A stretch of DNA of 64,000 bases from contig CAVUWD010000013.1 in the NCBI GenBank assembly GCA_963745025.1, forward strand, positions 96,001 to 160,000. The letters are read 5' to 3'. The notes under the pieces are model-generated. The model worked only from the letters and a program-made list of their open reading frames with translations. It made no database searches and had not been told where the DNA came from. A program made the position numbers and the translations under genes. This document shows positions 23,751-41,220 of this stretch, piece after piece. This stretch comes from an uncultured delta proteobacterium (GTDB lineage: Bacteria; Desulfobacterota; Binatia; JACPRU01). The first letter of the stretch is position 1, and each line of letters starts with the position of its first letter.

Positions 23751-25051
23751 GCCGTCGCCCGCGCCGCGGCCATTTGCCCGTGCCAGAGCGCGTCCTCCAT
23801 CGCCGAATATTCCCAGGCTCCGTAGCGCCCGACCGAGAAGATCCCGCAGTGCTCCAGATCCCGCGTCGCCTCGGGGAGAAATTCTCGCCGGTGGCGATCG
23901 TGGATGACGTAGCCACAGGGGATGGCGAAGGTCTGCGCGCGCAGCAGACGCGCCGATGGCGGTACGAGACCTGCGCGACGAAGATCAGCGACGACGCGCT
24001 TCTCGAGCGCTCGGACGTCGGGCGCTCGCTCGGGAGGGTGAGAGACCTCGACGTAGAATGCGCTCGCGTCGGGCGGTACCGTCGCCGGACACAGGTTCGA
24101 GTACACCCCGACGCGGTAGAATGGAAATTCATCCTCGGGAAAATAGAGCCAGTGGTGCGGCAGGGGGCACGGAGCATCGAATCCGAGGTTCAGGTTCAGA
24201 ACCGACACGTGCCGGAGCCGCCGCGCGCCCTCGGCGAGCTCCGCCGGAAGATCCTCGATTCGCTCGAGGAGCCGCGGAAGCGGCATGGTGGAGATCATCG
24301 TCGCGTACGGCGCCACTTCACCGTTCGAGAGCCGCGCCTGGCGCCGGCCCGCGTGAATCGCGACGACCGACGTCGACAGTCGCAGATTGCGCACGTATGG
24401 CAGAAATGCGCGTGGCAAATGATCAATGCCGCCGGCGGCGGGGTAGAGAAAGCTCGGATTGTAGCCGAACGCTTTGGAATTGCGGCCGAGCGCACCGGCG
24501 ATGACGTCGGCCCACGTGGGCTTCGGAATCGACCACGAGACCCAGTCCGCCGTCACGGAGGCGAGATCGGTGCAGAAGAGCTTGCGGTTGTAGGGGATCA
24601 TGAAATGCTTGCAAATGCCCTCGCCGAACGTCGCAAGCGCCCAGCGGTCGAAGCTCGGATCCTCGCCGAGATCTTCGCCCGTTTGCAGCGTCTCGGCGAA
24701 ACCCATCACGCATTCACGCATCACCGGCTTCGGCAACCCGTGGGTGTTCACCTGAAAGGGGTAATCGGTGATCGTCCCGTGCGAGTACACGCCCGAGCGG
24801 CGGTCGATCCGTAGGAACGTCTCTTCGGGCAGCAGGCGGAAGACGAGCTCACGGATCTCCGGCCGCTTCATGTGCAGGAGGTGGCCGGTGAAATCGAAGG
24901 TGAAGCCGTCGACTCGCAGGGAACGGCAGAGCCCGCCCACGCTCGCCTCGCTCTCGACGACCAGATGGGGTCGGTCGCGGAGCGCATAGGCGGCGCTCAG
25001 GCCGGCGAGGCCGGCGCCGACGATGAGCACCGGCTGCGACGCCCGGGTCAA
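23747..25051 (-). CDS. FAD-dependent oxidoreductase (protoporphyrinogen oxidase / UDP-galactopyranose mutase-like)
   Basis: IVGAGLAGLSAA, GGLCRS, FDFTGHLLH, FLYPAAGG, GRYGAWEYSAMEDA; TTG start 25051 overlaps upstream TGA. Confidence 0.8.
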   Translation of the reverse strand: MTRASQPVLIVGAGLAGLSAAYALRDRPHLVVESEASVGGLCRSLRVDGFTFDFTGHLLHMKRPEIRELVFRLLPEETFLRIDRRSGVYSHGTITDYPFQVNTHGLPKPVMRECVMGFAETLQTGEDLGEDPSFDRWALATFGEGICKHFMIPYNRKLFCTDLASVTADWVSWSIPKPTWADVIAGALGRNSKAFGYNPSFLYPAAGGIDHLPRAFLPYVRNLRLSTSVVAIHAGRRQARLSNGEVAPYATMISTMPLPRLLERIEDLPAELAEGARRLRHVSVLNLNLGFDAPCPLPHHWLYFPEDEFPFYRVGVYSNLCPATVPPDASAFYVEVSHPPERAPDVRALEKRVVADLRRAGLVPPSARLLRAQTFAIPCGYVIHDRHRREFLPEATRDLEHCGIFSVGRYGAWEYSAMEDALWHGQMAAARATA

Positions 25052-26040
25052 AGCCCGGTTCTCCGCAGCATCAGGGCGATGAACAGCAGCAAGGCGGAAA
25101 ACGTCATCAACACCAGCGTGGCGACCGCCTCGTTTGTGGATTCCATCACAGTGCATGCCGCGAAGCCGAAGACCACACCGGTAGTGTACGCGATCGCAAC
25201 GGTCTGACGCACGCTCATGCCGGCGCGCCGGAGCCTGAGCGCGAGATGATCCGGGCTGCCGCGGAAAGGGGAGAGTCCCTTCTGCAGGCGGACCACGAAT
25301 ACGAAGGTAAGATCGAGAAGCGGCACGCCGAGGATGATTGCCGGCACCAGCATGCCGAGCGAATTTTTCGTCGTGTAGTGGCCGTTCATCGCCAGCGCTC
25401 CCAGCGTCAGGCCGATGAACAAGCTCCCGGAGTCTCCGAGGTAGATGCGTGCGGGCTGGAAATTGAAGCGCAAGAACCCGCACAGGCTGCCGGCGAGCGC
25501 GGAGGCCATCGTGGCAACCATCGGCTCGCCATTGTGAATCGCCACGCCCGCCAGAAACACGGCAGCGATCGTCGCAACGCCCGGGGCGAGACCGTCCATG
25601 ATGTCGATGATGTTGAGGGCGTTCGTCATCGTCAGCAGCCAGACGATCGAGAGCGCGAGGGCAACGAGCGGAGAGAGAAATATCAGCTTCACGTACAGGC
25701 CGGCCTTGAGGAGGGCCGCCACGGCGACGAACTGTCCGGCGAGCTTTTCCCAGGGGGAGAGCACACCGAGGTCGTCGATCAGGCCGAGCAGCAGCATCAG
25801 TGTCCCGGCGAGAAGGATGCCGAGCACCTGGTATCCGAACTCGAAGGTGAGGGCGAGCGCGATCAGATACGCGAGAAAGACGGCGAGGCCGCCGAGATAC
25901 GGAACCGGCTCGGATTGCGTCTTCAGCAAACCGTTCGGTCGGTCGACGATTCCGAACTGAATCGCGGCGCGCCGCATGAGGGGCGTCGTGTAGAGGGAGA
26001 GCGCGAGGCCGAGCGCGAACGCGAGCACGGGCCGTACCAT
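25048..26040 (-). CDS. Undecaprenyl-phosphate HexNAc-1-phosphate transferase (WecA/TagO, MraY family)
   Basis: PYLGGLA, GLIDD, NALNIIDIMDGLA, FNFQPARIYLGDSGS, DHLALRL. Confidence 0.92.
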   Translation of the reverse strand: MVRPVLAFALGLALSLYTTPLMRRAAIQFGIVDRPNGLLKTQSEPVPYLGGLAVFLAYLIALALTFEFGYQVLGILLAGTLMLLLGLIDDLGVLSPWEKLAGQFVAVAALLKAGLYVKLIFLSPLVALALSIVWLLTMTNALNIIDIMDGLAPGVATIAAVFLAGVAIHNGEPMVATMASALAGSLCGFLRFNFQPARIYLGDSGSLFIGLTLGALAMNGHYTTKNSLGMLVPAIILGVPLLDLTFVFVVRLQKGLSPFRGSPDHLALRLRRAGMSVRQTVAIAYTTGVVFGFAACTVMESTNEAVATLVLMTFSALLLFIALMLRRTGL

Positions 26041-26098
26041 CAGACACCCCCGTCCAGGGCGTTCGGCGTGCGAGGGCGATGCGAAGGTGCGGAGAGCG

Positions 26099-27370
26099 TC
26101 ACGGTTTCGTCCAGAGTGGAAGATGCTGCGCGAAGCCGAGCAGGACGAAGAGCAGGATCGGGTTCGCCGGGGCGTGCCAGTCGATGTCGAGCAGAGCGTG
26201 TGCGATCAGCACCACGGAGGCGACCGTGGGAGCCAGGAGAGGCCAGGAGGTGTCACGTGTCGGCTCGCTTCGTAGCCGTGCGATGGACCTCACGGGTGCC
26301 GCCATGGCCGCGACCAAGAAGCCGACGACCGCTGCCCCACCGACGATTCCCAACTCGGCGAACACCTCCAGCAGGAAATTATGAGGATACCGCGTGTAAT
26401 AACTGGTCACACGATAGCTCGGAAAGTGCTCCCAGAAGCGGCCGAGCCCGACACCAAAGAGCCAATGCTCGCGGATCATTGCAAGGCTGCCTTGCCATAT
26501 TGCCATTCGCCCCAGCAGGCCGACCTTCCAAAGTTCACGTAGGTCGACCGTTGCAACGACCGCGCCCGAGAGCACCGTGGCGGCGACCAAGCCCCACGAC
26601 AGTGGACGCCTTACTGCGTGCCACGTTGCCGACCGAAGCCGAAGCGCGCCCCACGCGACTGCGGCGAGCACGAGCAACGCCAGGGCGGAGCGCGACTCCG
26701 AGAGCAGGAGCGTGCCGACGAGAGGCAGAAGAGATGCCGCCGCGAACGGTCGGGAAGAATCGCCGGGCGCCGCCGCCAGACCGACGGCGAGCAGCATCGT
26801 CGCGGCCAAGAAGGCCGCGTAGCAATTCGCGTTGTAGAAATTGGCGTTGACCAAAGTGATGGCTGGAATTCCTGCAGCCGTGAGCAGCGGTAGCGTACGC
26901 GGAAATGCGATCCAATATTGATACTGGCCGTACAGGGCGGTTACCAACGCGCCGAGCAGCAGGCCGCGGGTGAAGCTCCAGAAAACTTCGGAACGCAGCG
27001 GAAGGCGCGAGAGGCTCGCGAACAAGAGAATCGCCGCGAAGATCCCCTGCGCTTCGAGGACGGCCCGTGGTCCTCGAGGGCGGAGGACGAGCGTGCCGGC
27101 CCACCACACGAAAAGCACGAGAAGACACGTCACCGCCCACCAACCCGACGAGTACCGGCTGCCGCTCGAGCGCAGGGGTCCAGCGCTGCGCGCCAACACC
27201 CCGGCAACTGCAACGGCCACCAGGTCGAAAATGGCGATGCCGTCCTCCGGTCGGAGTCCGACGAGGAAGTTTCCTCCGGCGAGGAGGGGGAGAACGAAGC
27301 CGACGGCGCCGAGACTCATGCCGACATCTCGTTTCACGTTTGCTTGCTCTGCTGGCTGCACCTTGCTCAC
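26099..27370 (-). CDS. O-antigen ligase / O-oligosaccharyltransferase family (Wzy_C)
   Basis: ANFYNANCYAAFL, LSESRSA, RMAIWQGSLAMIREHWLFGVGLGRF, YPHNFLLEVFAELGIVG. Confidence 0.88.
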   Translation of the reverse strand: MSKVQPAEQANVKRDVGMSLGAVGFVLPLLAGGNFLVGLRPEDGIAIFDLVAVAVAGVLARSAGPLRSSGSRYSSGWWAVTCLLVLFVWWAGTLVLRPRGPRAVLEAQGIFAAILLFASLSRLPLRSEVFWSFTRGLLLGALVTALYGQYQYWIAFPRTLPLLTAAGIPAITLVNANFYNANCYAAFLAATMLLAVGLAAAPGDSSRPFAAASLLPLVGTLLLSESRSALALLVLAAVAWGALRLRSATWHAVRRPLSWGLVAATVLSGAVVATVDLRELWKVGLLGRMAIWQGSLAMIREHWLFGVGLGRFWEHFPSYRVTSYYTRYPHNFLLEVFAELGIVGGAAVVGFLVAAMAAPVRSIARLRSEPTRDTSWPLLAPTVASVVLIAHALLDIDWHAPANPILLFVLLGFAQHLPLWTKP

Positions 27371-27382
27371 TCGTGACGGCGG

Positions 27383-28861
27383 TTACGGGAAGAAAAAGGC
27401 GTTCTCGCTGCCGTCGCGGGTTCTCCGTTCCCAGGCGGGCGGACCCGGGAGATCCTTGCGCACGAACACCAGGGCCGTGGCGTCGGAGTAGACGTACTGC
27501 CAGTCGGGTCGATCGAACATGAGCCGGGCGATGGGTTGGCGTCGGTCGATCAACGCGATCGAAGCATCGTGCAAGCTACGCTCCCAGCCCGGCCCTGCGA
27601 CCAGAAGTCGATTCGATTGATCGAGGACGGCGTCGGGGTAGGCAGTCGTGTACCTGCCATCCACGCTGACCCGGCATCGGGGGTAGAGGTGCCAGATTGC
27701 GTATTCCCCCCAATCGAAGGGCAAGAGCAGATTTCCTCTGAGGTGATTCCGCGAGATGAAGCGCACGGCGTCCACGGGGAACACCCGGGGAGAGACGAAG
27801 ATCTGGCAGTAGAGCCCCCGATAGACGGCCCCCACCTGCCAGAGCTGCCAAGCGGCGATCGCCAGCATCGTGCCGAGTAGCATTACGAACGCCGGCTGTC
27901 GCCCGGAGCGGTCCAGACTGGCGTGCAGAGCCTGCAGAAGATCCGATACGGTACGCGCGAGAAGCGGCGCAGCAAGGATCGCGAAGAGCGGCGCGTGGCG
28001 TTCGTGACGGAACGCGGCGATCGCGCCGAGCGCGATGATGCCGCTTTCCCAAAACGGCCGCCCGCGGTTGCTGATCGCGCCGACCAGGCATAGCGCCACG
28101 GCGAGCTTGAAGCGTAGATGCGAACCGTCGAAGAGCGGAATCGGGCTCCACTCCGAGATCTGTCGAACCCGTGTGAGATCGTGAGCCAGGAAGGCCGGCA
28201 GGCGGTATCCATAGGGGTTTACGAAGAGAGCAGCCGCGCAAAGCAGGAACGAGAGAACGAGCCAGCGTCGTTCGCGCGAATCACGCCGAACCCCCTCGAG
28301 CACGAGATAGGCTGCGAAAATCGCCAGGCCGGCGATGCTGCCGCCGTGCGTGTTGATCCAGACGAGGAAAAGAAGCGGCAGCGTCGCGAGGCAGGATGCT
28401 CCGCGGCCCGCGGCGTCCGCATGGAGACGATCCCACAGCAGCGCGACCGCCAGGAACGTGAAGAGCTGGGGTCGGATGAGGAAGCCCCACGACATGATCG
28501 AGGCGGAGAGTCCGAGCGCGAGTCCCCAGCCGAGCGGCTCGGCGCCTCGCCGTTCGGCCGTCTGCTTCATGATCAGGATCGTCAGCATGCCTACCGCGAT
28601 CTTGAAGAAGAGAAGGCCGGTAGATCCGAGATGGTCGTAGAGCCATGCGAAGACGCATTCGGCGAGGATCTCGTGGTTGATCCAGGGGTGATCCGGAGCG
28701 GTGTAGGCGTAGCCGTTGCTGGACGGAAGGGCTCCCGATTCGAGGATCTGCCGGCCGAAGAGGACATGGCCCCAGAGGTCGTTGTCCGCGGCGGGCGCGG
28801 AGGAGAAATACAGGGCGCCCACCAGTGCAAACACGAGGCAAATGAGCTGCCGCCGACTCAC
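27383..28861 (-). CDS. Polytopic membrane protein, probable GT-C type
   Basis: DNDLWGHVLFGR after TM1, WINHE, RPQLFTF, WINTHG, VNPYG, ISEW, VSVDGR. Confidence 0.7.
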   Translation of the reverse strand: MSRRQLICLVFALVGALYFSSAPAADNDLWGHVLFGRQILESGALPSSNGYAYTAPDHPWINHEILAECVFAWLYDHLGSTGLLFFKIAVGMLTILIMKQTAERRGAEPLGWGLALGLSASIMSWGFLIRPQLFTFLAVALLWDRLHADAAGRGASCLATLPLLFLVWINTHGGSIAGLAIFAAYLVLEGVRRDSRERRWLVLSFLLCAAALFVNPYGYRLPAFLAHDLTRVRQISEWSPIPLFDGSHLRFKLAVALCLVGAISNRGRPFWESGIIALGAIAAFRHERHAPLFAILAAPLLARTVSDLLQALHASLDRSGRQPAFVMLLGTMLAIAAWQLWQVGAVYRGLYCQIFVSPRVFPVDAVRFISRNHLRGNLLLPFDWGEYAIWHLYPRCRVSVDGRYTTAYPDAVLDQSNRLLVAGPGWERSLHDASIALIDRRQPIARLMFDRPDWQYVYSDATALVFVRKDLPGPPAWERRTRDGSENAFFFP

Positions 28862-28918
28862 GAGCGGTGCGCCTTGGCGCTCGATTCAGCGCCGAGCTTG
28901 TCGCCGAAGGGTGCCACC

Positions 28919-31351
28919 TCAGGCCGAGAGCCGCCTCGTCGCGTCGAGCTCCCCGCTGGTCGAGACGCCGAGTCGGCAGAGAGTCAGTAGGGTGGCGACC
29001 ACGGCGGCGAACGCTGAAATTGCTGCGCCGATCTTGACCGACCTCGGTCGATAGAGGAACTCCACGGTGTGTTCCCCCGCCGGCACTACGACGCCGCGAA
29101 CGAACGCGTTCGTCTGGTATATCTCGAGGGGGACCCCGTCGCTGTCTGCGGTCCACCCCGGAAAGTCCGACTCGTTCAGGACTAGAAACGCCGCCGCTTG
29201 CGAGCGGACGTGGATGCGCACGCGGTCGTCTTCTTTGCTGACGAGGCTCGCTTCAGGATTAGCCGCCTCGCCCTGCCGAGCATTGGTCCAGCCCGTTGGA
29301 AGCTCGGGGACGATGGCCACGTCCTCGCAGGCGAAGTCCGGCTGCGCGATCGTGTCTACCGCTTTCGACGTCAGTGGCTCGGCACGTAAGGTAGTGACGG
29401 CCGTAACCAGCGGGCAGGGGTCCGGGATGCGATACACAAAAAACGGAGAGGGCGCCGACGGCGATAAACGCTCGAGGCCTGGCACATCCAGAGCCTCGGG
29501 GCCGATCAGCAACCGCACGCCGTACGCTCGCGCGAGAGCCACGGCGCGTTGGCGAGGCAGATGGATCAACGATTGCAGGAGAAGCTGGTCCGAGGTCCGA
29601 CCCACGGCATCGCCTCCGGACAGTGCCGCGACGTCTGCGGCCAGGCCGATGTCGGGGTAGAGAGCTTGCCAAAGCTCCTCGTATAGGGAGCTCAGATCCT
29701 GCGAGGCACTGATCTGCTCCGCCCAAGGAGTCAGCCCCGCAATTGGCACGCTTCGGTTCTTTTGTTCGTCAAATGCGGTCAACTGGTAGTGAAAGATCCG
29801 TTCGTGCTTCGCGCGCAGTAAATCCGGGTCGACCAGGAACCCTCTTTGCTGTAGCCGACTCCACGGCATGCTCAGATTGAGGTTGCCGTGCACGGAACCC
29901 AGATCGACGGCTACGAAGGCAAGGAGGAGCGCCGAGAAGCTCGACGGACTGAGCACTCTCCGATGAAGAAGCAAGAGGAACAGCAAGATGCCCATCATTG
30001 AGAGCAGGCGCCTGAGCTTCAGATCGATGTCGATGGCGAGATCCACGAACTGCCAAGGGGGGAGATACTTCCCAGCGATCACCGGAAGGATCTCGAGGTA
30101 GCGCTCCGGATGAGCCCAACGGAGGCCGAGCAGCGCGGCAGCGACCGTCACGAACGTGAGCGAGACGACGTAGGTCAATCGCTCCGCCTCGCCTCGCCGC
30201 CGAACGATCTGCTGAGCCCCTTCGGCCGCTAGAATGGCGGCAGCGAAATGAGCCGCAAAGAAGAACTTCTCGGGAAAGCGAAACTTTCCGACCAGCGCAG
30301 GAAACATATGGTAAAGCCAGACGAACACCGGATTGCGCGCGCCCAAGGCGAGTAGGACCCCGGCGAGCAGCACGGCGGCCCAGAACCGCCGCTCGGCGCC
30401 ATAGACGACGCCGACGATCGCCAGGCAAAGCGGTGCGATACCGATATAGAAGCTGAGGATCCAAGGGAGGCTGCGCTCGAGTTGGGGTCCGAGAGAGCTC
30501 GTCTCCGCTCCCCCGATCAAGGTTCCCGTGTGCGGGATGAGAAGCTGAAGGAGAGATACCGGCTGGAGCGACCAGGCAGTGACTTCGTGCAGGGGCAGCG
30601 CCGAGCCGCGAGGCGAGTGCCGCAGGTACTCCGCTGTCGGGACGATTTGCGCCGCCGTCAGAGCCAACGCGAGAGCGCAACCGAGACCGAGCATGAGCTC
30701 CGTTCGCACCACGGCCACGGGATCCGGAGCCGCGGCGTACGCGGCCCAAGCCGACACGATCGTCAGGGTCATGAGGAGCGTTTCGGGCGATCCCGCGAGA
30801 AGCTGGAGCACGATCGCCAGTGAAAAGACGACTAGGCTCCTCGGCCCGGGCTGCTCGAAAAGACGCATCGCCGCCAGGAGGACCCACGGCGACCAAACCG
30901 CGCCCTGAAGATGGTTCGTCAGGTTCATCATCGAGACGAGGTCGCCGCCGAGGGCGAACGTGATCCCGCCGACCGACGCCGCAAGCAGCCCGAGCCCGCG
31001 CCGGCGAAGAAGCGCCCACATGCCGCTCATCGCCACCAGATAGTGGGCGACCAGATAGAGGCCGAAGCCGAACGGGAACGGAACCAGCAAGAGCAAGCTC
31101 ATCGGATAGAAGACCCCCGCTTGAGGGTTGGCCAAGAACGGGGTTCCCATGTTGATGAGCGGATTCCACAGCGGGATCTCGGCATGACGCAGGTGCGCCG
31201 CCAGGAACAGCTTATGTGGAACCGTGAAGAGCAGCAGGTCACGGTAGATGGGCACCTCGCCTCCCCAGAGGATGTGACGAAAGGTGCCGACGACGAACGT
31301 CGAGCAGAGCATTAGACACGCAGTGGCGACGATTCGTGAGGACGGCTTCAT
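28919..31351 (-). CDS. YfhO-family GT-C membrane protein
   Basis: PIYRDLL, EIPLWNP, GTPFLANPQAGVFYP, FRFPEKF, LNESDFPGW, RGVVVPAGEHTVEFLYRP. Confidence 0.87.
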   Translation of the reverse strand: MKPSSRIVATACLMLCSTFVVGTFRHILWGGEVPIYRDLLLFTVPHKLFLAAHLRHAEIPLWNPLINMGTPFLANPQAGVFYPMSLLLLVPFPFGFGLYLVAHYLVAMSGMWALLRRRGLGLLAASVGGITFALGGDLVSMMNLTNHLQGAVWSPWVLLAAMRLFEQPGPRSLVVFSLAIVLQLLAGSPETLLMTLTIVSAWAAYAAAPDPVAVVRTELMLGLGCALALALTAAQIVPTAEYLRHSPRGSALPLHEVTAWSLQPVSLLQLLIPHTGTLIGGAETSSLGPQLERSLPWILSFYIGIAPLCLAIVGVVYGAERRFWAAVLLAGVLLALGARNPVFVWLYHMFPALVGKFRFPEKFFFAAHFAAAILAAEGAQQIVRRRGEAERLTYVVSLTFVTVAAALLGLRWAHPERYLEILPVIAGKYLPPWQFVDLAIDIDLKLRRLLSMMGILLFLLLLHRRVLSPSSFSALLLAFVAVDLGSVHGNLNLSMPWSRLQQRGFLVDPDLLRAKHERIFHYQLTAFDEQKNRSVPIAGLTPWAEQISASQDLSSLYEELWQALYPDIGLAADVAALSGGDAVGRTSDQLLLQSLIHLPRQRAVALARAYGVRLLIGPEALDVPGLERLSPSAPSPFFVYRIPDPCPLVTAVTTLRAEPLTSKAVDTIAQPDFACEDVAIVPELPTGWTNARQGEAANPEASLVSKEDDRVRIHVRSQAAAFLVLNESDFPGWTADSDGVPLEIYQTNAFVRGVVVPAGEHTVEFLYRPRSVKIGAAISAFAAVVATLLTLCRLGVSTSGELDATRRLSA

Positions 31352-33811
31352 TCGGCCTGCTGCGCCTCGATCGTTCTCGCTGTCCCTTTACGCGTTCCTG
31401 TTCCGAAGAGAACGAGCAGGAGCACCACGAGCGTGATGCCGCTCGTGGCGGCTCCGATCCGGAACGAGGCAGGGCGGTATGCGAACGCCACCTCGTGCTT
31501 ACCGGCGGGCACGACGATGCCTCGGACGAGAGAGTTGGCGCGTAGAATCTCCGTCGACTGTCCATCGAGGGTGGCTGCCCAACCGGGGAAATAGGAATCG
31601 TTCACCACGAGGAGCGCGGTGCAGAGGGACTCGACCTCGAACCGTTGTCGATCATCCGTCTGCTCAGCGACGATCACTCTACCCGGCGAAGGAGCGGACG
31701 CCGTCACAGAGGTTCCGCCAATCCTTCGGGGGGGAGCTCACCACCGCGTCGGCGCCGGGCTGGAAAATCGGCGAGATCATTCGATTGAATGCCTCGAGAT
31801 CGCTGCTGACCGAATGCACTCGAGTCGCCAGGTAGGCCTGAGGGAGGACTTGGTCCAGCTGGTAGACGTAGAATGGAAAGTCATGAGGGGTCGGAACCCG
31901 ATGCAGGGAGGGGACGTCGAGAGGCGTTGCGCCGATCAAATAGAGGACTGAAAATATCCCGAGAAGCTTCACCGACTGGGGGCGTGTCGGCAGCGACAGC
32001 GCGTCGCTCAACATGTTTTCCGAGGCGCGAGTGATCCCATCGCCTCCACTCAGGGTCCCGATGCCCTCGAGCATCGGAGTGTTGAACATCAGTGCTTGCC
32101 ACGCCTCTTCGAAAAGGCTGCGCGCCGAGTCGCTCCTCCAGCCCAGCCGCGAAAGATTTACGAGGCCCCGGACGGGCTTTGGCTCCTGGCCGGGAAAGGC
32201 GGCGGAGTCGGTCTGGTAGTGAAAAAGTCGCAGGCGGTCCCGGCGAAGCGCCGTGAGATCGACGAACACCGGCCGATCTTTCAATCTGGCCCAAGGGAGC
32301 GCGAGATTGAGGTCGTAGTGGGCCGTGGCAAGGTCGGTGGCTACCAGGCCGGCCAGCAAGACGGAGATAGTCGACCGTGAGAGGAATCCCCGGCGCCGGA
32401 AGAGTAGTAGAGCCGCGAAGGCCCCGAGGATGAGAAGCGCCCGCCACGCGCGGAAAGCGACGCTCTCCCCGAGCGATGCCAGCGCGTCGGCCCCGCGAAA
32501 ACCGCCGCTCAGGAAAACGATCCCTTGCAGGTAGGCGGCCGGAAAAGCCTGCCGCGCTAACACGAAGACGGTGCTGATGGCCGCCAGCGTCGCCGCTGTG
32601 ATCCACGCCAACCTCTCCGCGCGCGGCCGCTCTGCCAGCACCTCGTCTACGCCGAACGCGGCGAGCATGGCGACGCCGATGTGGGTGACGAAGAAGAACT
32701 TCTCGGGGAACCGAAACCGACCGACGATCTGTGGCGCGATTTGAAGAAGGAACGGAAGCACCGGTAGATGCCTCCCTAGAGCGAGAAAGATCGCCGCACC
32801 GGCAGCGGGTGTCCATAGCCAGCGCTCGCGAGCGAAGGCGGCCCCGACCACGGCCAGGCACAGCGGTACCAGGCCGAAATAGAGGCTCACGATCCACGGC
32901 TGCGTACTTTCGAACATGGGGCAGAGATCTCCGGGACGGTCACCCGGCCCGAGCGCGCTGCCATGGGGGAACAGGAGCTGGAGGAGTGATACGGGCTCCA
33001 TGGACCAGCTCATCACCTCGACGTAGGGAAGTGCCTGGTTTCGCGCCGATTCGCGAATGTACTCAGCCGTGGGAAGGATCTGAACCGCGGTCAGGCACGC
33101 CGCGGTGAGCAGCGCAACGGCTAGAGAAAGAGTGGCGATGGGTAGCTCGCGCCATTTTCCGATGGATCTGTAGCCGGTCTCGGCTGCGGCCAAGCAGAGC
33201 GTCATCAGTAGGCTCTCGGGTGCGCCGGCGAGAATCTGCATCGCAACCAGAGCGGTGAACGCTAGCCAGCGGCCCACGGACGCCTTCTCGAGATGACGTT
33301 TCCAGGTGAGGAGAACCCATGGTGCCCACACGCCTGCCTGAAGATGATTCGTGACGTTCATCATCGACAGGAGATAGCCCCCGAGAGTGAACGTCAGGGC
33401 TCCGACGGCGGCTGCCGCAACGGAGCATCGGCGCGAGCGAATCAGGAACCACGCGCCGAGCAGCGCAACGAAGTAGTGGAATACGATGAAGACATCGAAG
33501 CCGAGGGGAAGGTCCAGAAGCAGAAGAATGCTCGGCGGATAAAACACTCCGGTCTGCAGACCGGCGAGAAATGGCGTGCCTAGAACGATCCACGGATTCC
33601 ACAACGGGATCATCCCCTGGCGCAGGCGACTCGCCAGAAACTCCTTGAAAGGAACCGCGAATACCAGCAGGTCGCGGAAGACGGGAATTTTTTGCCCGAG
33701 GAGCAGATCGAAGAAGAAGAGGGCCGTCCCGAGCAGGAGCGCTAAAATCGCGATCAGCGAGGATAACGGAAGACGCGGACGACTTGATGCAGGGAAGGGC
33801 TGGATGGGCAC
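31348..33811 (-). CDS. YfhO-family GT-C membrane protein; +1 frameshift near 31713
   Basis: ORF 31679-33877 plus 31348-31707 (VNDSYFPGW...RGIVVPAGKHEVAFAYRP) make one YfhO; start moved to GTG 33811 because ATG 33877 would place the 5' end across the terminator. Confidence 0.82.
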
Positions 33812-33836
33812 GGCCTGCGTCGCATTTCGCTTATCC

Positions 33837-33875
33837 AAAAAAGACGAGGGGGGCAACCGAAAGGCCGCCCCCCTC
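33837..33875 (-). terminator. Rho-independent terminator after pilA
   Basis: Minus strand GAGGGGGGCGGCC-TTTC-GGTTGCCCCCCTC then GTCTTTTTT. Confidence 0.9.
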
Positions 33876-33908
33876 ATGCTTTGTTATGCTAGGCGAGATC
33901 CGAGTCAG

Positions 33909-34277
33909 TTACTGGGTGATGATCTGGCCGGTCGTGGACTGGAAAATCCAAGAATCCGTGCCGCCGGTCGGGTCCGCGGAGAGCGTATACGACGTCGCAC
34001 TCGAGGCGGAGACCGAATCGTTGACCGCGGTGCTCTGACGGAAGCCGAAGGTCTTGAGAGTGGCAACCGTGGCACCGCCGTAGCTGTTGCCGTTCGACCC
34101 GTAGTACGCCTCCATGGCGGTCGCCATGTTGTGGAGGTCCGACTTTGCCTTGGAGTCGGCCGCCTGCTGCTTGTACGTGGCGTACTGCGGGATCGCGATC
34201 GCAGCGAGAATGCCGATGATCGCCACCACGACGAGCAGCTCGATCAATGTGAAGCCCTGTTCGTTCCTCTTGTTCAT
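33909..34277 (-). CDS. pilA: Type IVa major pilin (122-aa prepilin, 114-aa mature)
   Basis: MNKRNEQG|[24 protein letters not shown] class III signal peptide with E5; purine-rich RBS; own promoter and terminator; position in pil locus. Confidence 0.93.
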
Positions 34278-34350: not shown

Positions 34351-34366
34351 TGCAAACAGAGGACCA
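34351..34366 (-). promoter_or_regulatory. Sigma-54 (-24/-12) promoter of pilA
   Basis: Minus strand TGGTCCTCTGTTTGCA: GG-N10-GC with TTTGCA -12 element, about 75 nt upstream of pilA, next to a sigma-54 activator gene. Confidence 0.75.
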
Positions 34367-34490: not shown

Positions 34491-34522
34491 CGTCACCCGA
34501 CCATTTTTTGACAAAAATCGAC
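34491..34522. promoter_or_regulatory. Candidate upstream activator sequence for the PilR-like protein
   Basis: TTTTTG-A-CAAAAA palindrome (34505-34517) with flanking GTCA/GAC half-sites about 140-150 nt upstream of the -24 box. Confidence 0.3.
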
Positions 34523-34531
34523 GAGGCCCCG

Positions 34532-36607
34532 TCAATCTCGCACCTCCCGCAGATCGATATCGCCAAATCCGTACTTACTGAGCCGATGCCGGAGTGACCG
34601 ATAGTTGATGCCGAGGATCTCGGCAGCCCGCTTTCGGACGCCGCCAGCCCGTCGTAAAGCCTCTTCAAGAAGGCGTTTTTCGATGGCTTCGAGCTCCGCG
34701 TCGAGGTTCGATGATCCAGCCTCCATCCATTCGACTTCGGCCGTCGACGTCGCGCCCTCGCTGCCTGCCCCCGTCGCATTGTTGACAGTGGCCGGAGCCG
34801 CGCCGTTTTTTCGTAGGTCGGCCGGCAGGTCTTCTTCCGTGATTATCTCGCTCTCTGCCAGGGCGACGGCGTGTTCGATGATGTTCTCGAGCTCACGGAT
34901 GTTCCCCGGATAGGAGTGACTCAGAAGACGTCGCATCGCCGGTGCAGAAAGCTTACAGACGGGGTGGTGGAGGGATTCGGCGAACTGAGCGAGGAAGTGC
35001 TCGATCAGCATGGGAAGATCGTCGGTTCGCTCGCGTAGCGGGGGCACCTGTATGCGGATCACGTTCAGCCGGTAGAAGAGGTCCTCGCGGAAGGTTCCCC
35101 GGCTGACCTCGCCCTCGAGGTCCCGGTTGGTGGCAGCGATGACGCGGACGTCTACCGCGATCTGGGTCTGTGCGCCGACGGGCGTAAATGACCGCTCCTG
35201 CAGCACCCTCAGCAGCTTCACCTGCAGCGCGAGCGGCAGGTCGCCGACCTCGTCGAGGAAGATCGTGCCGCCGTCGGCTGCGCGGAATAGCCCTCGACGG
35301 TCCGCGACCGCGCCTGTGAACGCTCCACGCACGTGTCCGAATAGCTCGCTCTCGATCAGGTTGGCGGGAATGGCCGCACAGTTCACGACTACCATCGGCT
35401 TTTCGCGGCGAGGGCCGAGCGCGTGGATCGCGCGGGCCACCAGCTCCTTTCCAGTACCGCTCTCCCCAGTGATCAACACCGTCGATTCCGTCGGGGCCAC
35501 CTTGTGAATGAGCTCGACGATCTGCAGCATTCGCTGGCTGCGTCCGAGGAATCCGACGATCTCCGGTACGTTCGGACGCGGCCGCTGATCGTCGAGCGCC
35601 GCCGGCTCCTCGAGCGACTCTGACGAGAGCTTCCTGAGCTGTGTGACGTCCTGCAGGATGAAGAGCGATCCGATCAGGTTGTCATACGTGTCCGTGAGCG
35701 GGGCCCGGGTGAAGCGCAGGATTTGCTCCTCCGCGTCGGGCTGCGCCCGATGCGAGAGCTCGATCGGGATCGGGTCGATCACTCTCTTGGCTCCGACCGG
35801 AGGTCGAAGCGCCGGAAAGACGTCGGAGATTCGCCGGCCGATGAGCTCCGCCCCCGGTCGTCCGATGATCGTCTCGATGGCTTGATTGGCGGACTTGACG
35901 AAGCCCTCGGGGTCGGTGGTGAGAACACCGCTCTCGAGGTTCTGAACCAATACCTTCTGCAGATTTTCGATTCGCTGGAAGTCCTCCTGCGACTCGCGCA
36001 GCTCTCGCTGCGTGCTGGCGGCACGCTCGACGAGGATCGACGACAGGAAGGCGATCGAGAAGAAGGAGGCGATGTTGGCGGCGATGTAAACCACACCGAG
36101 GCCCGTCGCCGGCGCCGGCGGCGCGAATCCCAAGACGCTCGGCAACGCGTGGTAGTAGACGAGGTTCATCAGCGTGCCGTAGGTGAGCGACGACAGTGCC
36201 GCGGCGGTGTAGGCGCCATGGCGGAGCAGCAGGAAGGCCGCGCCGATGATGGCCAGGTTGTACCAGACGCCCATCGGGCTCTCGAGCGCGCCGGTCAGCA
36301 GCACCGCGATCGAGTTCAAGAGGATGTCGAAGACGACCTGTGCGAGCGCGAACACGCGCAGGTTGTCGATGCGCGCCACGCCGTAGGCCGACGCGGCGGA
36401 GAACGCGTAGGCCAGGACGATCAACCCGGTGACCCCGCGCAGCGGAAAATTCGGGTCCGAATCCGGAGCGACGTGGGTGCCGGCGACGGCGCCGAGGAAA
36501 ACCGTGACGATCAGCACGCGCGCGAAGAGCCAGCCGCGGAGACGCGCGCGAAGAGCCTCCGGGGCGAGGTCGGTGCTGTTAAGAGCGTGCGTCACAGATC
36601 GCGCCAC
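34532..36607 (-). CDS. Membrane-anchored sigma-54 activator: PilS-like TM domain + PAS + AAA+ + Fis-type HTH (PilS-PilR fusion lacking kinase and receiver)
   Basis: aa ~25-193 six TM (QVVFD..LLTGALESP..Y), ~215-325 PAS ending QDVT, then GESGTGKE, ESELFGH, GAFTGA, FLDEVG, FREDLFYRLNV, C-terminal RAAEILGINYRSLRHRL; lies between pilC and pilA. Confidence 0.9.
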   Translation of the reverse strand: MARSVTHALNSTDLAPEALRARLRGWLFARVLIVTVFLGAVAGTHVAPDSDPNFPLRGVTGLIVLAYAFSAASAYGVARIDNLRVFALAQVVFDILLNSIAVLLTGALESPMGVWYNLAIIGAAFLLLRHGAYTAAALSSLTYGTLMNLVYYHALPSVLGFAPPAPATGLGVVYIAANIASFFSIAFLSSILVERAASTQRELRESQEDFQRIENLQKVLVQNLESGVLTTDPEGFVKSANQAIETIIGRPGAELIGRRISDVFPALRPPVGAKRVIDPIPIELSHRAQPDAEEQILRFTRAPLTDTYDNLIGSLFILQDVTQLRKLSSESLEEPAALDDQRPRPNVPEIVGFLGRSQRMLQIVELIHKVAPTESTVLITGESGTGKELVARAIHALGPRREKPMVVVNCAAIPANLIESELFGHVRGAFTGAVADRRGLFRAADGGTIFLDEVGDLPLALQVKLLRVLQERSFTPVGAQTQIAVDVRVIAATNRDLEGEVSRGTFREDLFYRLNVIRIQVPPLRERTDDLPMLIEHFLAQFAESLHHPVCKLSAPAMRRLLSHSYPGNIRELENIIEHAVALAESEIITEEDLPADLRKNGAAPATVNNATGAGSEGATSTAEVEWMEAGSSNLDAELEAIEKRLLEEALRRAGGVRKRAAEILGINYRSLRHRLSKYGFGDIDLREVRD

Positions 36608-36900: not shown

Positions 36901-38124
36901 CTACTGACTGATCACGGCGCCCAACTGGAAGATCGGCAGGTACATCGAAATCACCAAGCCGCCGATGACCACGCCGAGGAACACGATCACGATCGGCTCC
37001 ATCAACGCCGTCAAGTTTGAGATCGCGTTGTCGACTTCTTCCTCGTAGAAATCGGCGATCTTGGCGAGCATGGAATCGAGCGCGCCGGTGGTCTCGCCGA
37101 CGGCGATCATCTGGCAGACCATCGGCGGGAAGACCTTGCTCTGGATGAGCGGCTCCGCGATTGTCTTGCCTTCGGAGATCGACACGCGCGTGGCGAGCAC
37201 CGCCTTCTCCACGACGCGGTTGCCCGCGGTTCGCGCGGTGATGGCGAGCGCATCCAGAATGGGAACACCCGAGGCGATCAGCGTACCCAAAGTCCGGGTG
37301 AAGCGAGCGACCGAAGACTTACGGAAGAGGTCACCGAAGATCGGCAGACGGAGGAGAATCCCGTCGATCGCCAGCTTCCCTTGATCCGTGCGGTAGAGCC
37401 ACACGGTGGCCACCCCGATCAACACGAACACAACCGCGATGTACGGAGCATATCTGACGGTGAAGTTGCTCAAGTTGATCACGAACTGCGTCGGCGCGGG
37501 CAGCGCCTGTCCGAAGCTCGAGAACAGCTCGGCGAACACTGGGATCACGTAGATCAGCAGGATCGCCGTGACGGCCATCGCCACCGTCACGATGGACGCT
37601 GGATAGATCATGGCGCCCTTGATCTTCGCCCTGAGCCTGGCGGCCTTCTCCATGTAGATGGCCAGCCGGTTCATGATGTTGTCGAGAATACCGCCGACTT
37701 CGCCGGCCGCCACCATGTTGATGTAGAGCTCGTCGAAGAGCTTCGGGTGCTTGCGAAGGGCCTCGTTGAACGAGGCTCCCGCCTCGACGTCGTCCTTGAT
37801 CTGCTGGATCGCGCGTCGCAGCGGCTTGACCGTGGCCTGCGCCTGCAGGATGTCTAAGCACTGGACGATCGGCAGGCCGGCGTCGATCATCGTCGCGAAC
37901 TGCCGCGTGAAGACGACGATGTCGCGTGTCTTCACGGTTTCGCCGAGACCCGGAATGCTGATCTGCCGATCGAGCCCCTTGCCCTTTTCCTTGATCTTGG
38001 CCGGAAGCGGCTGAATGCGCTGTGTGCGCAGGCGCACGATCACTGCGTCGCGGGTCGTAGCCTCCATCTCGCCCCGCATCACCTCGCCCCTGGGCGAGAT
38101 CCCTTCCCATCGGAATACTGCCAT
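36901..38124 (-). CDS. pilC: Type IV pilus inner-membrane platform protein PilC
   Basis: FTRQFATMIDAGLP, AGEVGGILD, AMIYP, GETTGALDSML, MYLPIF. Confidence 0.96.
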   Translation of the reverse strand: MAVFRWEGISPRGEVMRGEMEATTRDAVIVRLRTQRIQPLPAKIKEKGKGLDRQISIPGLGETVKTRDIVVFTRQFATMIDAGLPIVQCLDILQAQATVKPLRRAIQQIKDDVEAGASFNEALRKHPKLFDELYINMVAAGEVGGILDNIMNRLAIYMEKAARLRAKIKGAMIYPASIVTVAMAVTAILLIYVIPVFAELFSSFGQALPAPTQFVINLSNFTVRYAPYIAVVFVLIGVATVWLYRTDQGKLAIDGILLRLPIFGDLFRKSSVARFTRTLGTLIASGVPILDALAITARTAGNRVVEKAVLATRVSISEGKTIAEPLIQSKVFPPMVCQMIAVGETTGALDSMLAKIADFYEEEVDNAISNLTALMEPIVIVFLGVVIGGLVISMYLPIFQLGAVISQ

Positions 38125-38162: not shown

Positions 38163-39254
38163 TCAGCGTCGCATCACCTTCGCGGCCGTTGGGGTCCCGG
38201 TCAGCATGGTATGCAGCTCGTCCGGCTCGGTCGCGTGACCCAGCGCCTCTTCGAAGGAGATCAGCCGCCGGCTGTGGAGATCCAACAAGGACTGGCTCAT
38301 CGTTTGCATGCCGTGCTTGGCCTGTCCGACCTGCATCTGCGAGTAGATCTGATGGATCTTCTGCTCGCGGATCAGGTTGCGGATCGCCGGGTTCGGGATC
38401 ATCACCTCGGCGGCGAGCACGCGGCCCTTGCCGTCCTGGCGCGGCAGCAGCTGCTGCGAGATCACCCCCTCCAGCACAACCGAGAGCTGCGCGCGGACCT
38501 GCGGCTGTTGGTACGGCGGAAAGACGTCGATCACGCGGTTGATCGTCTGCACCGCGGAATTGGTGTGCAGGGTCGAGAAGACGAGGTGACCGGTCTCGGC
38601 GACGACCAGCGCCGCCTCGATCGTCTCGAGGTCGCGCATTTCACCGATCAGCACGATGTCGGGGTCTTGCCGCAGCACGTGGCGGAGCGCGTGGTTGAAG
38701 CCCTTGGTGTCCGCGAATACTTCGCGCTGATTGACCAGGCAGCGCTTGCTCTCGTGCACGAACTCGATTGGATCCTCGACCGTGATCACGTGTTCGCGCC
38801 GCTCCATGTTGACCTTGTCGACCATCGAAGCGAGGCTAGTCGACTTGCCGCAGCCGGTCGGTCCGGTGACGAGCACGAGCCCGCGGGGCTGCTTGCAGAG
38901 CTCGTTCACGATCATCGGTAGGCCCAGCTCCTGGAACGACTGGATCTTGTAGGGAACGGCGCGGAAGGCGCCTCCGGTGGAGCCCTTCTGCAGGAAGACA
39001 TTGCCGCGAAACCGTGCAACACCGCGAACCGCGAAGGAGAAATCGAGCTCGAGGTCCTCCTCGAAGCGGTGCTTTTGCGCCTCGGTGAGCAGGCTGTAGC
39101 AGAGGTTCTTGGTATCCGTCGGCGTCAGCGGCGGATAAGGCAACGCCGTCAGGTCGCCGTTGATGCGAACCAGAGGCGGGCTGTCGACCGCGATGTGCAG
39201 GTCCGAAGCCCCTTTCTCGTTCATGATCTTCAGAAATTCTTGGATGTCTGCCAT
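38163..39254 (-). CDS. pilT: Type IV pilus retraction ATPase PilT
   Basis: ASDLH, GPTGCGKST, LRQDPDIVLIGEMRD, TLHTNSA, AIRNLIRE. Confidence 0.96.
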   Translation of the reverse strand: MADIQEFLKIMNEKGASDLHIAVDSPPLVRINGDLTALPYPPLTPTDTKNLCYSLLTEAQKHRFEEDLELDFSFAVRGVARFRGNVFLQKGSTGGAFRAVPYKIQSFQELGLPMIVNELCKQPRGLVLVTGPTGCGKSTSLASMVDKVNMERREHVITVEDPIEFVHESKRCLVNQREVFADTKGFNHALRHVLRQDPDIVLIGEMRDLETIEAALVVAETGHLVFSTLHTNSAVQTINRVIDVFPPYQQPQVRAQLSVVLEGVISQQLLPRQDGKGRVLAAEVMIPNPAIRNLIREQKIHQIYSQMQVGQAKHGMQTMSQSLLDLHSRRLISFEEALGHATEPDELHTMLTGTPTAAKVMRR

Positions 39255-39305: not shown

Positions 39306-40997
39306 TCAGTCCGAAACGGTGACGCGGACTACCTCGTCGACCGTAGTAATCCCCTCTCGCACCTTGCGAAGGCCGGCGGCCCGCAGTGTCTGCATGCCGA
39401 GCGACACGGATTTGCGCTTGATCTCCACCGCGGAGGCTCCTACCAGCACCGCTTCGCAGATCTCCTCCCGCATCGGCAGCACCTCGTAGAGCGCGATCCG
39501 GCCTTTGAATCCGGTCGCGCTGCACTCGTCGCAGCCCGTCCCGTGATAGAATTTCACCCCGTCGAGATCCGCGAGGCGGAAGCCGACCTGAAGTAGCGCC
39601 TCGCGGGGATATTCGGTCTCTGTCTTGCAGCGCGGGCAAATGACCCGAGCCAGGCGCTGCGCGAGAATGAGGTTGAGCGACGAGGAGACGAGGAATGGCT
39701 CGACGCCCATGTTGAGCAAGCGATTGATCGTCGAGGGAGCATCGTTGGTGTGGAGTGTCGAGAGCACGAGGTGGCCAGTGAGCGCGGCCTTGACGGCGAT
39801 CTCGGCGGTCTCGAAATCGCGAATCTCGCCGACCATGATCACGTCGGGGTCCTGACGCAGAAAGGAGCGAAGCGCCGCAGCGAAGCTGAAGCCGATGTCG
39901 TCGTGGATCTGCACTTGATTGATGCCGACGAGGTTGTATTCGACCGGGTCCTCGACGGTGGAGATGTTGTCGGTGATGCGGTTGAGCTCCGAGAGCGCCG
40001 AATAGAGGGTCGTCGTCTTGCCGCTGCCCGTGGGGCCGGTGACGAGCACCATGCCGTGCGGCCGCGAGATCGCCTCCTTGAAATCGCGAAGCGCCGCGTC
40101 CTCGAATCCGAGCTTCGTCATGTCGAGCTGTAGGCTCGACTTGTCGAGCAGTCGGAGCACGATCTTCTCGCCGAAGATCGTCGGGATGACCGAGACGCGG
40201 AAATCCATCTCCTTGGAGCCGGGCAGCCGGAGCTTGATGCGTCCGTCCTGCGGCAACCGGCGCTCGGCGATGTCGAGCGACGCCATGATCTTCAGCCGCG
40301 AGATCAGGGGATTCTTAAACTTGAGCGGCGGCTTCATGATCTCGTAGAGCACGCCGTCGATGCGAAAACGCACGCGCAGCATCCTCTCGAAGGGCTCGAT
40401 GTGGATGTCGCTCGCGCGCTTGCGGATCGCGTCGGTCAGCAAGGCGTTCACGAGCTTGACGACCGGAGCCTCTTCGGTTGCGCGCTCGAGCTCCTTCAGG
40501 TCGATCTCTTGTTCGTCGCGGACGAGCTCGAGGTCCTCGCTCTCGATCTTCTCGAGCACTTCCTGGATGGCGCTTCCGCCCTCGTAGAAATGGTCGATCG
40601 CTTTGCGGACCGAGGACAGCTTGGCGAGGACGACGCGGACGTCGTAGCCGGTGAGGAACTTGACCTCGTTGATCGCGACCAAGTTCGAGGGATCGGCCAT
40701 GGCGAGCGTCAGCGTGGATCCGGCGAGATTGAAGGGCAGCAGGTGATGTTTCCACGCGAGCGAGACCGGGATCAGCTGAAGGACTTCGGAGGCGATCTCG
40801 AGGCTCATCGGATCGACGATCGGCAGCCGGTATTCCCTCTCGAGATGGGATACGAGCTGCTCCTCGTTGACGACGCCGAGGCGCACGAGATGCGCAGCGA
40901 GGATCCCCCCCTGCTGCTCCTGGTCCGTGGTCGCCGAGACCAGCTGATCTTGGGTGATCAGCGACCGCTTGAGGAGGAGTTCGCCGAGGCGCGACAT
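39306..40997 (-). CDS. pilB: Type IV pilus assembly ATPase PilB
   Basis: MSRLGELL, ASDIHIEP, ERRLPQDGR, GPTGSGKTTTLYS, CPRC...GCDEC zinc motif. Confidence 0.96.
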   Translation of the reverse strand: MSRLGELLLKRSLITQDQLVSATTDQEQQGGILAAHLVRLGVVNEEQLVSHLEREYRLPIVDPMSLEIASEVLQLIPVSLAWKHHLLPFNLAGSTLTLAMADPSNLVAINEVKFLTGYDVRVVLAKLSSVRKAIDHFYEGGSAIQEVLEKIESEDLELVRDEQEIDLKELERATEEAPVVKLVNALLTDAIRKRASDIHIEPFERMLRVRFRIDGVLYEIMKPPLKFKNPLISRLKIMASLDIAERRLPQDGRIKLRLPGSKEMDFRVSVIPTIFGEKIVLRLLDKSSLQLDMTKLGFEDAALRDFKEAISRPHGMVLVTGPTGSGKTTTLYSALSELNRITDNISTVEDPVEYNLVGINQVQIHDDIGFSFAAALRSFLRQDPDVIMVGEIRDFETAEIAVKAALTGHLVLSTLHTNDAPSTINRLLNMGVEPFLVSSSLNLILAQRLARVICPRCKTETEYPREALLQVGFRLADLDGVKFYHGTGCDECSATGFKGRIALYEVLPMREEICEAVLVGASAVEIKRKSVSLGMQTLRAAGLRKVREGITTVDEVVRVTVSD

Positions 40998-41220
40998 TGC
41001 TACCGGTTCGTGAGGCGATCGATCCGTCCGAGGCGGTTGCGCGGACGACGTCTTCGATCGACGTGATCCCATGTCGGAGCGGTGTGCCGTCCTCTCATGG
41101 CGACTTCTTTCTCAGCGGTCTTCATCCGACGGTCACCAAGAAAAGGCTAACGTAGCGCCGACGCGGGAGTCAAATCGGGCGCCGACGACTCGTTCCCGGG
41201 CAGGAGCGCCGGCGCGATCG

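Follow-up and report, generated by a model that had tools for sequence, protein, structure and literature searches.

A single membrane-anchored sigma-54 activator seems to take the place of PilS and PilR in the pil locus of an uncultured Binatia lineage

Introduction

Can a single protein take over the control of type IV pilin supply from the two proteins PilS and PilR, its textbook controller? This question is raised by a pil locus in a 64,000-nt stretch of DNA from an uncultured delta proteobacterium of the class Binatia (GenBank assembly GCA_963745025.1, contig CAVUWD010000013.1, positions 96,001 to 160,000), hereafter called the window. The position of pilS and pilR, between pilC and pilA, is occupied by one open reading frame encoding 691 aa (34532..36607), as had been stated in an original prediction made from the letters of the sequence. 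The frame has a GTG start and lies, like the neighbouring pil genes, on the minus strand. We refer to it as the fusion gene, since its product combines a PilS-type six-transmembrane (TM) domain and a PAS domain with a linker, a sigma-54 AAA+ module and an HTH_8 domain.

The usual picture of enhancer-binding proteins (EBPs), the activators of sigma-54 promoters, is one of soluble hexamers brought to the promoter by DNA looping. Here we describe the architecture, distribution, origin and genomic context of the fusion gene. Pilin control by a single membrane protein in place of a two-protein phosphate relay is what the sequence data seem to indicate, and we consider it likely, with a probability of roughly 70%, that the fusion protein is a one-component, inner-membrane-integral sigma-54 EBP that activates the adjacent pilin gene without phosphotransfer.

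Results

From its N-terminus, the fusion protein comprises the PilS-type 6-TM domain (aa 20-200, 36008..36550; 6TM_PilS, PF25323, 31.1 bits at a cut-off of 27), the PAS domain (aa 223-325, 35633..35941; PAS_4 E 4.5e-9 together with the AlphaFold2 model), the junction linker (aa 326-352, 35552..35632), the sigma-54 AAA+ module with its lid (aa 354-605, 34793..35548) and a Fis-type HTH_8 DNA-binding domain (aa 639-679, 34571..34693; PF02954, E 3.8e-13), all encoded on the minus strand. Within the AAA+ module, Pfam assigns Sigma54_activat (PF00158) to aa 354-520 (E 3.3e-73) and AAA_lid_14 (PF25601) to aa 525-605. The module had been called intact and is so, with Walker A (GESGTGKE, aa 381), GAFTGA (aa 428) and Walker B (IFLDE, aa 449) all present, and the QDVT motif said to end the PAS domain is found at aa 319. 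The acidic and proline-rich linker, placed by the prediction at ~35550-35630 with ~25 aa, has 27 residues (KLSSESLEEPAALDDQRPRPNVPEIVG), among them 6 D/E and 4 P, and is predicted to be disordered; both its length and its sequence vary across the fusion family. A Pfam scan of the 691-aa protein at an E-value limit of 1 listed no HisKA, HATPase_c or Response_reg, in agreement with the claim that H-box, HATPase and receiver are missing. NCBIfam returned generic sigma-54 activators only, all under cut-off and matching from ~aa 340, and sequence matches in the PDB (ZraR, FleQ, NifA, NtrC1) begin at aa 340 or later.

The AlphaFold2 model, built on 26 family members with a mean pLDDT of 78, has N-terminal helices at residues 16-44, 56-77, 83-104, 111-151 and 171-223, a PAS fold at 227-332, an AAA+ fold at 358-600 and disorder at 602-633 followed by the HTH. 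A long cytoplasmic helix (aa 196-223) continues TM6 and precedes the PAS domain in this model, and the linker region has pLDDT below 50 at 331-344, with no helix or strand before 358. The proposal of six PilS-like TM helices held for their likeness to PilS and less clearly for their number: by hydropathy, five TM segments stand out clearly and the fifth helix, at aa 132-151, is weak, so that the count of six rests on the Pfam profile and the AlphaFold2 helices taken together.

Judged by these domains, the fusion protein is not a PilS, the HisKA/H-box and HATPase_c core being absent. It is likewise without the receiver and phospho-acceptor domain of PilR, yet its AAA+/HTH output is nearest to that of PilR and is encoded beside pilA. 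Its features are those of an EBP, namely an AAA+ domain with Walker A and B, GAFTGA, HTH_8, a predicted sigma-54 promoter and an rpoN gene. By prediction, membrane anchor and DNA-binding domain reside in one polypeptide.

Sequence across the junction was found in public sequencing runs from three different other studies. X1 and X3 each gave one 151-nt contig (35537-35687 and 35545-35695) with 0 differences from the window, and X5 gave a 1396-nt contig (35210-36602) with 41 differences; all three span the linker. Since at most 0.45 of the sampled words were present in any one run (0.05-0.20 in RNA runs), the source organism itself was not re-sampled.

The same join is encoded by more than 100 independent assemblies. 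In a collection of 5.8 billion proteins, 118 of the 120 homologues listed (45-100% identity) carry both PF25323 and PF00158, so the architecture is not specific to one isolate; the other two are N-terminally short, and no kinase or receiver family is recorded for any of the 120. The homologues stem from Candidatus Binatia, Deltaproteobacteria, Thermodesulfobacteriota and bacterium HR30, and their product names include 'sigma 54-interacting transcriptional regulator' and 'response regulator PilR'. A near full-length match in one frame was present in 5 of 121 genomes sampled from the phylum, the source genome included. Among 151 genomes of the class, 57 matched the whole N-terminal half by hand count (the sample includes the unpublished genome G203, which is not among the 57), and in the top 20 of these matches Walker A and GAFTGA lie in the same frame in all 20 and an H-box in none. 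Overall, the PilS-PilR fusion seems, as far as sequence can tell, to be conserved across a whole uncultured lineage. Interrupted fusion genes were seen in G133 (C17:1596-2531), with an in-frame TAA, and in G240 (L140 5971-8060), where the gene is split over three frames; these copies may be pseudogenes or sequencing errors.

No second PilS-like N-terminal half was found in the source genome, which is 92.65% complete, at E <= 1e-5. The one further 6TM_PilS protein of this genome is a kinase of 491 aa that has HATPase_c but lacks PAS (L001, G000:C6:385796-389287); it is encoded outside any pil locus, ~20 kb from rpoN, with a similar partial paralogue adjoining.

Twenty related loci were compared, 18 from the class, 1 from another class and 1 more from the class obtained through the phylum search. 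The expectation that related genomes would have the same architecture after pilC was borne out: pilC lies directly upstream of the fusion gene in all 20, pilB is present in 20/20 and pilT was detected in 14/20, and in 14/20 a type IV pilin gene follows the fusion gene within ~0.1-0.7 kb. In L136, L137, L138, L139, L142 and L152, the fusion gene is followed by genes for a ~330-aa membrane-anchored protein and an ABC-transporter ATPase, a pair which we take to resemble pilG/pilH of Myxococcus.

PilC was found in 145 of the 151 class genomes, and a second set of 16 pilC loci was drawn from class genomes without the 6-TM fusion. L154 (only pilins before the contig end) and L165 were too short to classify (2/16). 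G141 (L160 1195-3033) and G159 (L161 1142-2995) encode a shorter regulator between pilC and pilA, with two predicted TM segments, PAS, AAA+ and HTH, which by its sequence is a reduced yet membrane-anchored form of the fusion. A split pilS-pilR pair between pilC and pilA occurred in none of the 36 loci (20 + 16).

Sigma-54 control of pilA, assumed in the original prediction, fits the intergenic sequence. A predicted sigma-54 promoter, TGGTCC-N5-TTGCA with -24 GG and -12 GC (34351..34366, minus strand), lies ~75 nt upstream of the pilA ATG. Of 15 fusion-to-pilin intergenic regions, 14 contain the word TGG-N9-(T/A)GC(A/T/C) a single time each, with ~0.1 matches per 300-nt region expected by rough arithmetic on equal base frequencies, and the fifteenth region (L145) reads CGGCAC-N5-TTGCG by eye. 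An rpoN gene was found in the source genome (208 bits; C6:408760-409236). When four pilC-to-pilA regions from genomes without the fusion were read, the sigma-54 element was kept in two and absent in two. L153 and L155 (G126, G171) have no regulator between pilC and pilA and TGGCAC-N5-TTGCT still precedes pilA; as the element is kept there without a neighbouring regulator, an unlinked activator must serve pilA. A candidate enhancer (upstream activating sequence, UAS), TGTCA-N13-TGAC (34492-34513, minus strand), starts ~18 nt past the stop codon of the fusion gene, and a TGTCA-type word shortly past this stop codon recurs in most related loci.

The origin of the two halves was examined against nine split pilS-pilR pairs from other phyla, confirmed by Pfam. 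They came from the best 80 of at least 600 relatives in a family-alignment search that was swamped by generic AAA+ patterns and hence yields comparators, not a census of fusions. The nine PilS proteins carry 6TM_PilS, PAS, HisKA and HATPase_c (the 6-TM profile is unmatched in 1/9), and the nine PilR proteins REC, AAA+ and HTH_8. PilS of L097, from a Methylomirabilota metagenome-assembled genome, aligns to aa 18-329 of the fusion protein (28% identity, E 5e-21) and has a HisKA domain from its aa 346 onward. For PilR of L097, the alignment to the fusion protein (aa 340-681; 48% identity, E 1e-104) opens at PilR aa 137, behind the REC domain at aa 15-124. The fusion most likely arose from a pilS-pilR tandem by one in-frame deletion, because the alignment breakpoints match exactly such a join. 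The deletion, of ~1.1 kb (~370 codons) across the pilS-pilR boundary, would have removed the DHp/ATPase core of PilS and the receiver of PilR and brought the PilR linker between receiver and AAA+ directly behind the PilS PAS domain.

An exhaustive search with the N-terminal half (aa 1-352) yielded 882 representatives at E <= 1e-10. By motif tests, the best 150 of the 882 comprised 117 kinases with an H-box (~530-600 aa), 9 fused proteins (8 by motif and P0032 by its Pfam record) and 24 fragments or unclear cases. In the tree of the C-terminal half, a 99% branch sets apart 41 fused rows, with PilRs placed between them and 17 other EBPs of the source genome; one of these EBPs, L124, forms a weak pair with a long-branched PilR. 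In the N-half tree, gammaproteobacterial PilS form the outgroup and other PilS are interspersed among the fused rows. The alignments to L097, the N-half search and the separate trees thus uphold the proposed relation of the N-terminal half to PilS and of the C-terminal half to PilR, each half being nearest to its counterpart in these comparisons. The fused genes L004 and L006, from other classes, group with split PilS/PilR in both trees (support 92 and 98), a placement that hints at a second fusion event. A single clade of all fused C-terminal halves was, however, not rejected by an approximately unbiased (AU) test (p 0.336), and there may have been one fusion event or more.

Selection was measured as dN/dS between the fusion gene and three relatives in the same family, including a congener. 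Values were 0.23-0.35 for the TM domain (congener 0.23), 0.13-0.21 for PAS (congener 0.21), 0.06-0.15 for AAA+ (congener 0.06), 0.05 for the HTH in one of the three comparisons (congener; dS was not computable in the other two) and 0.40-0.50 for the linker in two of the three. Every domain of the fusion gene is under purifying selection. Across 26 family members, Walker A and Walker B are invariant, as are G428, T431, G432 and A433 of GAFTGA, with A429 and F430 at 90% or more. In the TM domain, the polar residues R30, Q90 and D94, which lie within the membrane, and the T105-G106/S110 turn are conserved across 32 fused proteins as well as across 104 PilS-type kinases.

The remaining genes of the locus run on the minus strand in the order pilB, pilT, pilC, fusion gene and pilA. 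They encode the extension ATPase PilB (39306-41072; Pfam T2SSE, E 5e-147, and MshEN), the retraction ATPase PilT (38163-39254, 363 aa; Pfam T2SSE), the platform protein PilC (36901-38124; Pfam T2SSF in two stretches) and the type IVa major pilin PilA (33909-34277, 122 aa; Pfam N_methyl), whose leader MNKRNEQG is followed by FTLIEL and whose residues 8-31 are invariant across 12 relatives. The source genome also encodes a second, distant PilC paralogue (G000:C19:120057-121274, 39% identity), and the congener has a second PilB-like gene beside pilB (L133 8890-10590, 54% identity); these genes suggest a further pilus or secretion system. Directly downstream of pilA, a run of large polytopic membrane proteins extends over 25048-33877 (minus strand). 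It includes a YfhO-like protein (28919-31351), two proteins with no Pfam match (31679-33877 and 27383-28861), a Wzy_C (O-antigen-ligase-type) protein (26099-27370) and a family-4 glycosyltransferase (25048-26040). Enzymes that O-glycosylate pilin carry Wzy_C, and the run could be a pilin glycosylation cluster.

Discussion

We describe a gene that, by its predicted domains, merges the sensor half of PilS with the output half of PilR. The PilS-PilR systems of Pseudomonas aeruginosa and many other bacteria have a 6-TM and PAS sensor half and an AAA+/HTH_8 output half homologous to those of the fusion, and share with it the position between pilC and pilA and a sigma-54-dependent pilin promoter. 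In contrast to them, the fusion is a single polypeptide without DHp/H-box, kinase ATPase domain and receiver. The original prediction knew of no described example of such a protein, and here it has to be corrected: Rsp of Neisseria gonorrhoeae has been published as a fusion of nps/pilS and npa/pilR (Carrick et al. 2000, cited in PMC10269533 and PMC6528607). The parts of these two articles available to us describe Rsp as a remnant that apparently plays no part in the transcription of pilE. Going by that published description, Rsp joins the membrane part of PilS to the C-terminal part of PilR as the fusion does; unlike Rsp, the fusion family is old, widespread, selectively maintained and accompanied by rpoN and by a pilA promoter of the sigma-54 type.

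Other regulators share single traits with the fusion. The one-component PAS/GAF EBPs, such as NifA, NorR, DmpR/XylR and those of Desulfovibrio, also carry a sensor directly on AAA+ with no receiver, but they are soluble whereas the fusion carries a polytopic membrane domain. In D. vulgaris, 15 of 37 EBPs are of the sensor-AAA+ type without receiver, according to the accessible portion of PMC4641369. The source genome itself encodes four soluble EBPs with a PAS/GAF sensor fused to AAA+ and no receiver. Regulators of the ToxR/CadC type have an N-terminal (OmpR-type) winged helix, one TM helix and a periplasmic sensor, and act at sigma-70 promoters. The class of ToxR, CadC and TcpP resembles the fusion in that one polypeptide is anchored in the membrane and also binds DNA, as an excerpt of PMC10269533 has it. 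In contrast to the ToxR/CadC type, the fusion is predicted to cross the membrane with six TM helices and to lack a periplasmic domain, to carry a Fis-type HTH at its C-terminus and to work by a sigma-54 mechanism driven by ATP. Among sigma-54 activators, PspF is held off by a separate membrane protein, PspA. Similarly, RedR2 with BtdS, as far as the consulted part of PMC10084136 goes, is a sigma-54 activator linked to the membrane. In both of these pairs it is a separate membrane protein that switches the activator off, whereas the membrane part of the fusion is covalent. A full-text literature search found no functional PilS-PilR fusion and no membrane-integral EBP. Within the literature searched, the one-component PilSR is, on the strength of its sequence, common in public data and undescribed as a working system.

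How would such a protein work? The six TM helices would place both termini in the cytoplasm, TM6 would continue into the long helix and the PAS domain as in PilS, and the flexible linker of ~27 residues would allow AAA+ modules from neighbouring subunits to come together under the membrane. With its C-terminal HTH the protein would bind the candidate enhancer just behind the stop codon of the fusion gene itself. At the -24/-12 promoter of pilA, ~130 bp beyond that enhancer, its GAFTGA loops would then remodel the sigma-54 RNA polymerase. Since the kinase core and receiver are absent and sensor and output form one polypeptide, no phosphorylation step would be possible. Such an activator would stay in the membrane unless it were cleaved. 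The locus probably stays close to the membrane, given that regulator and target are adjacent and that both products are membrane proteins.

The nature of the signal is a more tentative part of the proposal. The original prediction had suggested that pilin pools could control activator oligomerisation directly, with the pilA promoter tethered to the membrane; its architectural part is borne out here, and these two points would follow by analogy with PilS. By analogy with PilS, it is possible, at somewhat below even odds, that the PilS-like TM bundle reads the pool of pilin in the membrane and that the PAS domain restrains AAA+ assembly when pilin is abundant, which would amount to negative feedback. 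PilS binds pilin through its TM segments for autoregulation, according to the sections of PMC6058289 at hand. We favor pilin sensing because of this report and because the conserved TM residues are retained in the fusion. When the N-terminal half (aa 1-345) was modelled in complex with mature PilA (aa 9-122), the scores were 0.01 and 0.00 where the mark is 0.32, an outcome that speaks neither for nor against binding. The boldest version of the proposal, which we regard as rather doubtful, is a permanently membrane-embedded sigma-54 AAA+ ring, gated by intramembrane pilin and acting on a neighbour gene that is itself held at the membrane. Three PilS-like dimers would then form the ring under the bilayer, and co-translational insertion of both regulator and pilin would hold pilA at the membrane.

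Several observations weigh against a membrane-integral activator of the adjacent pilin gene. No pilin gene lies directly downstream of the fusion gene in 6 of the 20 related loci; the pilin gene must lie elsewhere in those six genomes. In 12 of the 16 loci without the 6-TM fusion, pilC leads straight into a pilin gene with no regulator between, and the fusion protein is therefore dispensable in some lineages. Two relatives, G133 and G240, have a disrupted copy. The pattern TGTCA-N11-16-TGAC has 1 match in the 64-kb window, the candidate UAS itself, against 1.22 expected, and since chance alone gives one match per 64 kb, TGTCA-N13-TGAC stays a candidate enhancer only. Enrichment of the UAS core word across loci is likewise modest (15 observed against 6.9 +/- 2.6, with some shuffles reaching 19). 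One 253-nt contig from an RNA library lies on the fusion gene, but it may stem from DNA carry-over. A flexible and poorly conserved linker would be a poor conduit for an allosteric signal, and tethering inhibits the EBP RedR2 where it is held at the membrane with BtdS (PMC10084136, in the part consulted).

We judge it unlikely, and yet worth stating, that the fusion is a membrane-anchored activator of pilA with a non-pilin cue, such as redox or energy state, a lipid or a small ligand, and that the main task of its TM domain is to anchor the protein or to place it at the cell pole. The ligands of PAS domains are many, and the two-TM version in G141 and G159 implies that the full 6-TM bundle is not indispensable. 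The TM domain of PilS is also on record as having a role in polar targeting (Ethier and Boyd 2000, as cited in the available text of PMC6058289). Against a non-pilin cue speaks that the intramembrane polar residues common to PilS kinases are almost invariant, that the TM domain is under purifying selection and that the fusion gene is tightly linked to pilA.

The linker could also be read as a cleavage site, the membrane tether being the off-state, a protease cutting the linker on a signal and the soluble AAA+-HTH fragment then activating pilA. Regulated proteolysis is known for other membrane-bound transcription factors, and an AAA+-HTH core without its N-terminal domain is typically constitutively active, as in PspF and in EBPs from which that domain was deleted. 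The linker is predicted by AlphaFold2 to be disordered and exposed, and membrane sequestration inhibits RedR2 (PMC10084136, same part). We nevertheless hold release by cleavage to be improbable: the linker has no conserved motif in 26 diverse members and is variable in length, a PAS dN/dS of 0.13-0.21 means stronger conservation than a mere anchor needs, and no protease gene was noticed in the 20 related loci, where no systematic search was made.

We rejected the reading of the gene as a decaying, functionless pilS-pilR remnant like gonococcal Rsp as very improbable. In its favor, the fusion in N. gonorrhoeae has no apparent role in pilE transcription according to the available part of PMC6528607, and a few relatives have interrupted copies. 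Against it, dN/dS is well below 1 in every domain, the ATPase motifs are kept in 26 members (A429 and F430 at 90% or more), the architecture is intact across the breadth of the family, down to 45% identity, and both rpoN and the sigma-54 promoter of pilA persist. An assembly artefact or a deletion private to the source genome, for which we found no supporting point, was rejected as having a negligible chance of being true, the X1, X3 and X5 contigs of three other studies and more than 100 assemblies having the same join.

A membrane-integral, one-component activator would offer a simpler system for the study of intramembrane pilin sensing, since the phosphorelay is gone and the output, ATPase ring assembly and transcription, is direct. 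For the sigma-54 field it poses a question of its own, as a polytopic membrane EBP must either act at the membrane or be released from it. If the permanently embedded version were true, the fusion would be a transcription switch that is gated by pilin and needs no phosphorylation, and the first EBP to be integral to the membrane. The fusion family is common in uncultured Binatia-like bacteria of soil and sediment, in which the pili under its predicted control may serve attachment or DNA uptake.

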